This document shows, piece after piece, positions 28,985-32,000 of a DNA stretch of 32,000 bases. Source of the stretch: Nitrosopumilaceae archaeon. Lineage in GTDB: Archaea > Thermoproteota > Nitrososphaeria > Nitrososphaerales > Nitrosopumilaceae. Each line of letters opens with the position of its first letter. Within the stretch, counting starts at the first letter, position 1. Below the pieces are notes generated by a model. It saw nothing but the letters and a program-made list of their open reading frames with translations, was not told the origin of the DNA and ran no database searches. The stretch is from positions 9,051-41,050 of the forward strand of contig DATKYM010000042.1 of the NCBI GenBank assembly GCA_035528495.1. Reading direction: 5' to 3'. Both the position numbers and the translations under genes were made by a program.

Positions 28985-29338
28985 TTGGATCATAACGATT
29001 TATGCCAAAAAATCTTAGAGTTAGTACCTCAAGTTAGGTTTAGTGGCATTTTAAACTCTAGAGGAGATTTAGCCGTTCAAAGTAATCGAAGAGATTCTGG
29101 AAAATTATTGAATGAGGATGAAGTAAAAATGTCTGTACATTATACTTATCAAAGATGGACAAGCATTCAAAATCTTGCTCATAAAATCGGTAAAGAAAAG
29201 ACAAACATTACAGAATTTGAGAAAGTTACTCTAATTAGCCTCCTCCTGAATGACGGAAATCTTCTCTTATTAAGCTCAGAACCCGCTGCTAATTATATGG
29301 AAATAATTTCCAAAGTCAAACAATTAATTCCTAATTAA
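28985..29338 (+). CDS. Hypothetical protein, Roadblock/LC7-like fold (inferred)
   Basis: 117 aa, TTG start. The pattern ILELVPQVRFSGILNSRGDLAV...VTLISLLLNDGNLLLLSSEPAANYMEIISKV resembles the Roadblock/LC7 alpha-beta-alpha layout. Confidence 0.45.
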   Translation: MDHNDLCQKILELVPQVRFSGILNSRGDLAVQSNRRDSGKLLNEDEVKMSVHYTYQRWTSIQNLAHKIGKEKTNITEFEKVTLISLLLNDGNLLLLSSEPAANYMEIISKVKQLIPN

Positions 29339-29697: not shown

Positions 29698-29834
29698 CTG
29701 TTAAAATTAGTAAAATTTTTTACGTCCTAAAATTAAAAAATAATTAATAAATTTTCCAAAATTTAGAGAAATTTACAATATCATAATTGAGAATCAGATA
29801 GTATAATAAATAAGCACATTTTTTTAATTTCTAT

Positions 29835-30416
29835 ATGAAGAAAATCGAGGCAATAATTAGGAGATCAAGCTATACCATAATAGCTGGCAAATTAAACACA
29901 ATGGGTTACCCAATTATTGATAAACGAAATTTAGAGGATAGCCAAATTTTAGATACCCAAGAAGGATCGCAAGCTGGTGGATCATTTAGAGTAAATACAA
30001 TTCCTCTTTCAAAAATTGAACTAGTTGTAACAGAAAAAGATGCTAGAAAAGTAATTGACCTTATTTCAAAAAATTCTGGATTCACATCGAGTAAAATAGG
30101 AAAAATTTTTGTATCAGAAATGGAAGAAGTTCTAGAAATTGACACACTTGAAAGTACTCAAGATTTAGAACTAGATGAAATTAATATTCCTCAAAAACCC
30201 AAAATCAAACGAAGTAGATTGGTTCCTCTTCAAAAATACACCTTACTTCGCCTTCAAGCTGTTTATGATGAAAACCATGAAACATTAGCCTCAGATCACA
30301 GGATAAAATCATTTAGTGACTTTGTTAATCATTGTATTATGGGGTATCTTCCGTCATTTGAAAAACAACTTAAACATCCTACAGTTGTTTACGGAAATAA
30401 TTTTAGAGAATTTTAG
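29835..30416 (+). CDS. PII-like domain fused to a C-terminal ribbon-helix-helix-like extension
   Basis: Residues 1-102 are PII-like: MKKIEAIIRR..., LSKIELVVTEKDARKVIDLI, B-loop-like SSKIGKIFVSEMEEVLEI, and a non-canonical T-loop EDSQILDTQEGSQAGGSFRVNT. Residues ~125-172, KRSRLVPLQKYTLLRLQAVYDENHETLASDHRIKSFSDFVNHCIMGYL, fit a strand-helix-helix pattern. Confidence 0.65.
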   Translation: MKKIEAIIRRSSYTIIAGKLNTMGYPIIDKRNLEDSQILDTQEGSQAGGSFRVNTIPLSKIELVVTEKDARKVIDLISKNSGFTSSKIGKIFVSEMEEVLEIDTLESTQDLELDEINIPQKPKIKRSRLVPLQKYTLLRLQAVYDENHETLASDHRIKSFSDFVNHCIMGYLPSFEKQLKHPTVVYGNNFREF

Positions 30417-30742
30417 ATAACGCTTTCACCTTCATCACCAGTTGCAATATCTATTGCACGGAGAATAGGTGAAACGAAGATTTTTCCAACACTTCCTTTT
30501 TCTTTAATTATGTTTATCACTTGCTCTTCTTTGCTTTCTGGAACAACTAATTCTATAACATACTTTTCACTGAACTGTGGTCGAAATATGGCACTTCCTT
30601 TTGCAGCATGGATTTCAGGAGGAGGTTTCTTTCCACGACCCCTTACTTTGTTTACAGTCAAACCACCGATCTCAAAAGCCTTTAATGCTTCACTAATTGC
30701 CATTACGTCATTATTTCCAAGGAAGGCTTGAATTCTTATCAT
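30413..30742 (-). CDS. PII (GlnK-like) superfamily protein, divergent from amt, atypical Pro/Lys-rich T-loop
   Basis: 109 aa. MIRIQAFL start, TVNKVRGRGKKPPPEIHAAKGSAIFRPQF T-loop region, B-loop GSVGKIFVSPI. Confidence 0.75.
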   Translation of the reverse strand: MIRIQAFLGNNDVMAISEALKAFEIGGLTVNKVRGRGKKPPPEIHAAKGSAIFRPQFSEKYVIELVVPESKEEQVINIIKEKGSVGKIFVSPILRAIDIATGDEGESVI

Positions 30743-30785
30743 TTAATATGTTTCAAGGTTTTTCACAAATAATAGTTTCAGATTT

Positions 30786-30817
30786 TGATAATCAAGTGAT
30801 AATCAAATAGTTATCAA
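30786..30817. promoter_or_regulatory. Candidate operator in the amt/PII divergent promoter: TGATAATCAA x2 plus TAGTTATCAA at 11-bp phasing, containing the inverted repeat TGATAA-N8-TTATCA
   Basis: Copies at 30786-30795, 30797-30806 and 30808-30817. They are flanked by TATTATTT TATA-like boxes, one for each divergent gene (about 30826-30833 on the plus strand; reverse complement of about 30766-30773). Confidence 0.5.
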
Positions 30818-30858
30818 ACTTCGTTATTATTATTTAGTTTCACCAACTTTGAAAAATA

Positions 30859-32000
30859 TTGCCAATAGATACAGGTGACACCGCATGGATGCTTGTAGCA
30901 GGAAGTCTAGTACTTTTAATGATTCCTGCGCTTGGTCTTTTTGAATCTGGTTTACTTCGAAAGAAAAATGCTGTATCTGTTTTTATGCAAATTTTCTTTG
31001 GTTTAGCATTACTTAGTGTGATGTGGTTCATATTCGGTTTTAGTTTAGCATTTGGTCCTGATGATACCGGTCTTGGATTAATAGGCAACATGGATTGGGT
31101 ATTCCTAAAAGGAGTGCCTTGGAATGAGGCACTAGATTATGCACCGACAATCCCAGGTGTTTTGTTTGTTAAATTTCAGTTAATGTTTGCCGCAATTACA
31201 CCTTTGTTGCTTACAGGAACTATAGCAGAACGAATGAAGTTTAGCTCCTTTATCATATTCATCGCTGCATGGTCAATACTCATCTATTATCCGTTAGTAC
31301 ATTGGGTATGGGGAGGAGGTTGGTTAAGTGCGATAGGTGTTGTAGATTTTGCTGGTGGAATAGTAATCCACACAAGCGTAGGAATGGGTGCACTAGCTGC
31401 TGCAATTGTACTTGGCCGCAGACGATTCTTTGGTCCTGCAATTGAAATTCCACATAGTATCCCACTGGCTGTAGTAGGTTCTTCTCTTCTGTGGTTAGGT
31501 TGGTTTGGATTTAACGCAGGAAGTGCATTAGCTTCAGGTTCTCTTGCAGGAAATACTGTAATTGTAACTCACATGGCCTCTTCAGTTTCTGCATTAATTT
31601 GGGTCGGATTATCTTGGATGAGAACAGGAAAACCATCTGTAGTTGCTGCCGTAAATGGAGCTATTGCAGGTTTAGCAGGAATCACACCAGCATCTGGATA
31701 TGTAAGTGTAGAACACTCATTTATTATCGGAATTGCAATAGGACTTGCATCGTACTCTACAATTATTATCTTCAAGGAAAAGTTGAAAATAGATGATGCA
31801 CTAGATGTTAGCTCTGTTCACGGAACTGCAGGTATTATTGGTGCATTATCAATTGGTATCTTTGCAAGTCAAGCTGTTAACCCAGGAGGGCCAAACGGTT
31901 TACTCTTTGGGAACCCAGATCAATTAGGAATTCAAGCAATTGGAGTGGGAGTTGCAGGAGCATTAGGATTTGGTGGTACTTACATAATTATGAAAATACT
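30859..32000 (+). CDS. amt: Ammonium transporter (Amt/MEP/Rh family), 3' end beyond the window; absent from the supplied ORF track
   Basis: My own translation, open from TTG 30859 to the window end: MPIDTGDTAWMLVAGSLVLLMIPALGLFESGLLRKKN..., VDFAGGIVIHTSVG, LWLGWFGFNAGS, DVSSVHGTAGIIGAL. The conserved DTAWML lies upstream of the first ATG (30889), which supports the TTG start. Confidence 0.92.
   Translation, partial: MPIDTGDTAWMLVAGSLVLLMIPALGLFESGLLRKKNAVSVFMQIFFGLALLSVMWFIFGFSLAFGPDDTGLGLIGNMDWVFLKGVPWNEALDYAPTIPGVLFVKFQLMFAAITPLLLTGTIAERMKFSSFIIFIAAWSILIYYPLVHWVWGGGWLSAIGVVDFAGGIVIHTSVGMGALAAAIVLGRRRFFGPAIEIPHSIPLAVVGSSLLWLGWFGFNAGSALASGSLAGNTVIVTHMASSVSALIWVGLSWMRTGKPSVVAAVNGAIAGLAGITPASGYVSVEHSFIIGIAIGLASYSTIIIFKEKLKIDDALDVSSVHGTAGIIGALSIGIFASQAVNPGGPNGLLFGNPDQLGIQAIGVGVAGALGFGGTYIIMKI

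Follow-up and report, generated by a model that had tools for sequence, protein, structure and literature searches.

Helically phased palindromes between divergent PII and amt genes, a candidate operator for a PII-fusion protein in the Nitrosopumilaceae

In a 32,000-nt stretch of DNA from a Nitrosopumilaceae archaeon (the window, meaning the whole stretch analysed), we found that the 116-bp spacer separating a small PII gene from a divergently oriented amt gene (30743-30858) carries three copies of a 9-bp palindrome, TGATWATCA, repeated with a period of 11 bp at 30786-30816. The array is real, unique in its genome, conserved, and co-distributed with a nearby gene whose product consists of a PII domain fused to a further, C-terminal domain (29835-30416). 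We propose that the three palindromes are a shared operator of the divergent promoter and that their most likely reader is this PII-fusion protein, a reading to which we assign, from sequence comparisons, a probability of roughly 0.6.

Ammonia-oxidising archaea are drivers of much marine nitrification. To our knowledge, no transcription factor with a defined operator has been described for ammonium uptake or nitrogen sensing in these organisms; full-text literature searches for such a pair found none, and likewise returned no description of the present operator or of a PII protein fused to a DNA-binding domain. If correct, the proposal would give ammonia-oxidising archaea their first defined regulator-operator pair for nitrogen control and would identify a PII protein that contacts DNA directly rather than through partner proteins.

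Anatomy of the divergent PII/amt promoter

The first-pass annotation of this region had reported two TGATAATCAA 10-mers (30786-30795 and 30797-30806) and a third copy, TAGTTATCAA (30808-30817), all 11 bp apart, together with a TGATAA-N8-TTATCA arrangement at 30797-30816 and an exact reverse-complement relation between TTGATAA (30785-30791) and TTATCAA (30811-30817). Re-reading of the sequence confirmed each of these positions, as well as the two TATTATTT TATA-like boxes that flank the block (minus strand, 30767-30774; plus strand, 30828-30835) and the occurrence of TAGTTTCA on both sides (30773-30780 and 30835-30842). The true repeat unit is the 9-bp palindrome TGATWATCA, as indicated by the most divergent congeneric ortholog, which carries three full copies, and by the central base, which is A or T among orthologs. 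Such a flip of the central base is as expected for a dyad-symmetric protein site. The features of the spacer and its flanking genes are:

30413-30742, minus strand: small non-canonical PII gene, 109 aa, divergent from amt (Pfam P-II, 5.2e-12)
30767-30781, minus strand: putative PII promoter, with the TATA box TATTATTT running from 30774 to 30767 and a BRE-like CTGAAAC from 30781 to 30775
30786-30794, no strand: candidate operator unit 1, TGATAATCA, forming with its flanks the perfect palindrome TTGATAATCAA (95.5% pairwise identity)
30797-30805, no strand: candidate operator unit 2 (central), TGATAATCA, with its dyad at 30801, the symmetry axis of the divergent promoter
30808-30816, no strand: candidate operator unit 3, degenerate here, TAGTTATCA (84.5% pairwise identity)
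30824-30835, plus strand: TATA-like tract of the putative amt promoter, TTATTATTATTT, about 27 nt before the TTG, a presumably leaderless geometry
30859-32000, plus strand: amt gene, starting with TTG and continuing past the end of the window (Pfam Ammonium_transp, 2.7e-100)

The product of the small PII gene was also aligned to solved PII structures. The whole spacer is two-fold symmetric, with mirror-image TATA boxes, one for each divergent gene, and the dyad of the array at 30801 falls halfway between the TATA boxes and likewise halfway between the start codons. Unit 3, degenerate in the window, matches TGATWATCA in full both in Nitrosopumilus-type genomes and in the most divergent congener. 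We infer the promoter elements and transcription starts from this layout, which would read TATA(PII), BRE, unit, unit, unit, BRE, TATA(amt), with a unit directly upstream of the BRE in each promoter. Assuming leaderless starts about 26 nt past the centre of each TATA box, the units would lie near -46, -57 and -68 of both genes. Separately, the 16 nt that precede each start (30745-30760 and 30845-30860; AACCTTGAAACATATT and AACTTTGAAAAATATT in gene direction) are 88% complementary, a likeness specific to this genome, since the segment is variable among orthologs.

The amt gene of the window is orthologous to the Amt1-type ('low-affinity') transporter known from marine ammonia oxidisers. It shares 83% identity with the amt located at 523,890 in genome G159. 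That amt is also preceded by the array and fits Nmar_0588 of Nitrosopumilus maritimus SCM1. Qin et al. 2020 (PMC7490402), the sole study located on Amt1 expression, name Nmar_0588 Amt1, the 'low-affinity' transporter, and report that its expression in N. maritimus responds to ammonia, falling under starvation or when ammonia is very low.

Uniqueness and conservation of the array

Single units occur at the rate expected by chance: the 1.86-Mb genome has 55 exact TGATWATCA matches, where base composition predicts about 46, and the window has 9 sites within one mismatch of the unit, where 10 would be expected. We scored arrays with a symmetric position weight matrix derived from orthologous sites, scanning the whole genome for unit pairs. 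The best pair reached 28.7 bits, the next outside the locus 19.0 bits (within an ORF), and the maximum over ten Markov-shuffled genomes was 19.6 bits. The phased array, which scores above every shuffled genome, is not a chance occurrence.

The same pair scan revealed no second array anywhere in the 1.86-Mb genome, including the regions before glnA, amo and urease genes, pointing to a local operator. A wider nitrogen regulon embracing glnA, urease and amo, which the first-pass annotation had raised for checking, is not supported by a site that is single-copy in the genome. Two look-alike promoters of about 45 nt (GAAATAYCGYAATTGATAATCATCAYGTTATTTTTAGTA) were seen elsewhere in the genome, each placing a single perfect unit 5 nt ahead of a TATA-like box (G000:C24:1917-1925 and G000:C84:4254-4262). 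The former precedes a strain-specific Roadblock-like paralog, for which no close ortholog was found (the best other match is 48% identical), and the latter has no clear ORF; both may be extra single-site targets. One-mismatch unit matches also recur in this genome (G000) at spacings of 12, 24, 36, 48 and 60 nt, a series that points to a 12-nt tandem repeat, which is probably coding.

Among 18 genomes of the same genus and one neighbouring genus, the PII/amt arrangement and a spacer of 116-118 bp are retained. Across the 18 congeners, units 1 and 2 show 95.5% mean pairwise identity, the PII TATA/BRE block 94.7% against 63% for the start-proximal flank, and the segment 30818-30842 90.9% against 59.5% for 30843-30858. 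For comparison, third codon positions of the flanking genes are 60-72% identical in the same genomes, and the 16-17 nt adjoining each start codon only about 60-63%. The PII TATA/BRE block is also kept, as CAGAAATTATATTT, in Nitrosopumilus-type genomes.

The first-pass annotation had named loss of the repeats from orthologous amt promoters as the outcome that would speak against it. Sequence comparison instead revealed the array at the same position in at least eight genera of the family, where it is the best-conserved part of the spacer in 62 distinct orthologous regions. Unit 2 is nearly invariant among these 62 distinct spacers (T in 61, G in 62, A in 55, T in 54, W, A in 58, T in 60, C in 62 and A in 59). 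Together with the dyad at the promoter midpoint, this conservation supports the earlier suggestion that one bound factor may control both amt and PII.

Of 301 family genomes, 75 contain two units with at most one mismatch, in almost all cases a single time, whereas a reversed control pattern was found in 3; nearly all of the matches that we inspected fall in the PII/amt spacer. Metagenome contigs gave a similar picture: every called array (68/68, from 80 loci) falls in the PII/amt spacer, in three cases on a contig that ends before amt, and 12 of the 80 loci have no array above the cut-off. One-mismatch unit pairs were also observed between purK and a 78-aa RAM-like gene, beside glnA (L075:1582-1601; G116:C17), and adjoining an Hsp20 gene (L076:1551-1570; G190:C28). 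These pairs outside the amt locus could be either chance occurrences or further targets.

Copy number and unit sequence vary among relatives, within limits. Two Nitrosopumilus-type metagenome contigs of 76.6 kb (L250) and 88.7 kb (L289) carry, in place of three units, six and eleven perfect 11-bp units respectively (TGATAATCAAA x6 at L250:3268-3415 and TGATAATCATT x11 at L289:3280-3482). In these expanded arrays the flanks beside both TATA boxes are unchanged and the terminal units lie at their usual distance from each TATA box, implying that the constant feature is a unit beside each BRE with in-phase units between. The site can be described as a variable-number tandem repeat whose copies remain in helical phase. 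A Nitrosotenuis-like group (spacers L126-L131) has variant TGTATAWCA units with the same 11-bp period at the same position.

The PII-fusion protein and alternative readers of the array

The candidate regulator is encoded 0.4 kb from the array by a gene convergent with the small PII gene, and has a putative promoter of its own:

29788-29796, no strand: one unit resembling those of the operator, TGAGAATCA (most congeners have TGATAAT[CT]A), located 5 nt before the fusion-gene TATA box
29802-29811, plus strand: TATA-like box of the PII-fusion gene, TATAATAAAT, about 27 nt before the ATG, again a presumably leaderless geometry
29835-30416, plus strand: PII-fusion gene, 193 aa, candidate operator-binding regulator (Pfam P-II, 4.9e-10, residues 1-103)

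Its product comprises a PII domain (residues 1-97), an acidic disordered linker of roughly 25 residues (98-119), and a C-terminal domain (120-193) that consists, according to AlphaFold2 and the charge profile, of a basic KPKIKRSR arm followed by two helices. The pI is 12 for the arm and 9.6 for the C-terminal domain. The best Foldseek matches of the PII domain are GlnK structures (E 2e-7), and the fusion protein aligns with M. jannaschii GlnK1 ungapped over residues 1-106 (phmmer, 4.5e-10). Relative to GlnK1, ligand residues are replaced by G35D, G37Q, Q39L, K58L, G87K, D88I, R101E and R103D, and only G89 and K90 are retained among the canonical residues of the ATP/ADP and 2-oxoglutarate sites. 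The N-terminal domain accordingly matches the PII profile and fold and lacks the canonical ligand residues.

The C-terminal domain belongs to a rare orphan family, with 18 matches among 1.84 billion representative proteins. Stand-alone homologs of 57-69 aa that lack a PII domain occur in other Nitrososphaerota (P0132, P0133 and P0135, all metagenome proteins), and 57-69 aa is the size of small DNA-binding repressors. One of them, P0135, starts with GFKTVTLREKVIEKIREYY, a pattern typical of small ribbon-helix-helix (RHH) repressors, yet has no Pfam match. In the monomer AlphaFold2 model of the fusion protein, helices span residues 134-154 and 160-180 (pLDDT 73-88), and the RLVPLQ segment is modelled as coil in the full-length protein and as helix in the isolated domain. 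This succession of an arm, a short segment and two helices, with the helix start S-F-S-D-F-V, resembles RHH proteins of the same genome, a resemblance only.

No test of that resemblance supported it. In Pfam hmmscan, at E-values up to 10, none of 15 family members or 3 stand-alone homologs matched an RHH family; no NCBIfam match was obtained for the C-terminal domain; and a six-frame scan of the genome with PF01402 recovered two other genes and missed the fusion gene. A PDB profile search with the C-terminal domain gave 0 matches, and PDB phmmer no support for RHH. Foldseek with the C-terminal model gave 0 PDB matches and no viral match below E=7, and hhalign against the genome's own RHH_1 domains assigned a probability of 3%, though helix B fell in the expected register. 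We therefore do not place the domain in the RHH family, membership of which no sequence or fold test supports.

Two side observations concern the fusion gene and its surroundings. In genome G159 the gene (L063:326-778; G159:C1:522625-523203) has an in-frame TGA after codon 151, with loss of the last C-terminal helix, and is intact in the sister genomes G177, G126 and G209; the TGA could be a natural or a laboratory loss-of-function allele. A Roadblock-like protein of 117-130 aa, for which no Pfam match was found, is encoded close to the fusion gene in three distinct gene arrangements (window 28985-29338, plus strand; L061:2370-2762; L074:2800-3101). The Roadblock-like family numbers 9 members in this genome and was found in every family genome sampled (61/61).

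One argument for the fusion protein is its distribution, which we collated by hand from tables, so that the following counts are approximate. Amt1 orthologs are present in about 139 of the 301 family genomes. About 98 genomes have both Amt1 and the fusion gene, of which about 68 carry a strict array and the remainder degenerate or variant arrays. Conversely, about 41 genomes (g27, g42, g3, g26, g32 and part of g37) have Amt1 and a divergent PII gene and no fusion gene, and the array occurs in just one of them, G271, a 92%-complete assembly in 230 contigs. The spacers of eight inspected g27 genomes have a different sequence and contain no unit with at least 8 of 9 matches, and fusion-less members of g37 show decayed remnants of the array. 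(A contig search with the full-length fusion alignment was dominated by ordinary PII genes and yielded only two useful loci.) The co-occurrence of array and fusion gene, with a single exception, suggests that the fusion protein is likely the regulator. The co-distribution may stem partly from linkage of the cassette and covers few independent lineages, perhaps five or six contrasts, and thus amounts to strong circumstantial evidence rather than statistical proof.

Additional evidence comes from the promoter of the fusion gene itself. In an alignment of 22 fusion orthologs, the unit at 29788-29796 and the TATA box, whose ATAAAT is invariant, are the only conserved blocks in an otherwise variable upstream region. 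Elsewhere in the family, three perfect units precede the fusion gene in G244 and phased units do so in the small-genome genus g40, while G116 has two units before each of its two fusion-gene copies, one of which is divergent from amt. A single co-variation also links unit and protein sequences: the Nitrosotenuis-like group, with its TGTATAWCA units, is alone in having the arm sequence RNRLVSLQKH in place of RSRLVPLQK[YF].

The main alternative is that the operator is genuine and is read by another transcription factor, for example of the Lrp/AsnC, TrmB or MarR type, with the fusion protein being merely co-regulated or accessory. We judge this unlikely, while recognising that some observations speak for it: the C-terminal domain has no recognised or assignable DNA-binding fold, the fusion gene in part of g37 is unlinked and has no upstream unit, and G271 has the array with no fusion gene detected, an exception to be read with the fragmentation of that assembly in mind. 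The uniqueness of the array in each genome, however, is a poor fit to a general regulator. Moreover, where the fusion gene is absent the array is absent too, despite the retention of amt1 and PII, and it recurs at the fusion gene's own promoter in several lineages.

A specific version of this alternative would have the repeats be Fur boxes bound by the genome's own Fur-family protein (G000:C92:7040-7372, E 6.5e-30). The unit TGATAATCA is identical to the core of the bacterial Fur-box consensus, GATAATGATAATCATTATC, and much of the literature that contains this 9-mer concerns Fur or iron. We nonetheless regard the idea as very improbable. Among 61 sampled genomes from 27 genera, Fur (PF01475) was found in only 6, all from g1 and g4, and not in the other 25 genera; it was not found in the array-bearing g30, g34, g37, g38, g40 and g43, nor, at E<=1e-10, in the array-bearing genomes G054, G055, G060, G075, G078, G079, G083 and G092. 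The period is also 11 bp, rather than that of a 6-bp hexamer or a 19-bp 7-1-7 arrangement, exact 9-mers are not enriched, and one array at one locus per genome does not resemble a metal regulon. Given the distribution of the gene, which was not found in most genera with the array, we reject Fur as the binder.

Equally slim is the chance that the spacer acts as RNA or single-stranded DNA, in the form of a hairpin, a cruciform or a small C/D-box RNA. The 116-nt spacer does fold at -22.7 kcal/mol (z = -4.55 against shuffles), and it has a weak match to the Rfam family snoR116, at 23 bits where the gathering score is 47 (E 0.048). The fold, however, merely mirrors the symmetry of two divergent promoters, and TATA boxes 25-30 nt before each start codon imply that the spacer is probably untranscribed. 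We rejected both an RNA element and a C/D-box sRNA on the grounds that substitutions in unit 3 (TTATCA to TAATCA or ATATCA) have no compensating change in unit 1, and that relatives have 2, 3, 6 or 11 direct copies, numbers that could not all fit one hairpin. Finally, neutral slippage producing a functionless AT-rich 11-bp minisatellite would account for the varying copy number, including the 6 and 11 perfect copies of the two metagenome contigs, and is scarcely credible given a central unit that is nearly invariant across genera with saturated flanks, the fixed spacing of terminal units from the TATA boxes in expanded arrays, and the decay or absence of the array in fusion-less lineages.

A candidate mechanism and its relation to known systems

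Returning to the PII-fusion protein as the probable reader, we outline how it might act; its binding to the array, its stoichiometry and its direction of control are what we infer. An oligomer of the fusion protein would occupy successive units along one face of the DNA and, once bound, would control the recruitment of TFB/TBP at both flanking promoters; through the single unit beside its TATA box, it would also act at its own promoter. Upstream of the BRE/TATA is the usual location for archaeal activators. The position of a unit just upstream of each BRE therefore favours activation, which also fits the expression of Amt1 when ammonia is available, and steric blocking of TFB is equally possible.

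A PII-family domain is normally a trimer. In a tentative extension of the model, which we consider possible without leaning towards it, this domain would be the sensor of a one-component transcription factor that reads cellular status directly at the Amt1/PII promoters and its own, with two trimers presenting six C-terminal domains that could pair as three dimers on the three palindromes. Binding by the fusion protein would extend the PII superfamily to direct DNA-binding regulators. In practical terms, a 33-bp site with a consensus at single-base resolution, together with a named candidate protein, makes the switching of Amt1 by ammonia supply testable, and array and fusion gene together mark lineages that retain the ammonia-responsive 'low-affinity' transporter.

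Several known systems share elements of this arrangement. The RHH repressors (MetJ with its met-boxes, CopG, Arc/Mnt and omega) recognise two to five or more short units of 7-9 bp, often palindromic and arranged head to tail at about one helical turn or less, in variable copy number, in the regulator's own neighbourhood and with autoregulation; moreover, the candidate binder here has a basic N-terminal arm and two helices in its C-terminal domain and occurs also in stand-alone form at about 60 aa. In contrast to them, the period here is 11 bp and not 8 or 7, the promoters are archaeal BRE/TATA promoters with the array upstream of both and not over them, and no sequence or fold test assigns the C-terminal domain to that fold. 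NikR and the Lrp/AsnC (FFRP) regulators resemble the proposed system in their one-component logic, in which an oligomerising beta-alpha-beta-beta-alpha-beta sensor is tethered to a small DNA-binding module (here a candidate one), and in the placement of site arrays at the promoters of genes for transport or metabolism. They differ in that the sensor here is of the PII family, is N-terminal and has its ligand residues replaced, while the candidate module comes from an orphan family.

Two further comparisons concern nitrogen control. As in the amtB-glnK pair of E. coli and most prokaryotes, an ammonium transporter gene is here paired with a PII gene, presumably coupled to nitrogen status. Unlike that pair, however, PII is divergent from amt at all loci that have both genes, instead of following it in one transcript, an extra domain is present on a second PII paralog, and transcriptional control is proposed to run through a dedicated operator. 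NrpR of Methanococcus maripaludis is likewise an archaeal nitrogen-related regulator with tandem palindromic operators at nitrogen-gene promoters. Its GGAA-N6-TTCC operators, a type absent from 30743-30858, overlap the transcription start and serve nif, glnA and amt, and NrpR senses 2-oxoglutarate directly, whereas the array described here occupies a single locus upstream of the BRE/TATA elements. Operators built from phased palindromes are a known kind of element; a PII sensor tethered to the domain that reads them would be a new form of one-component regulator.
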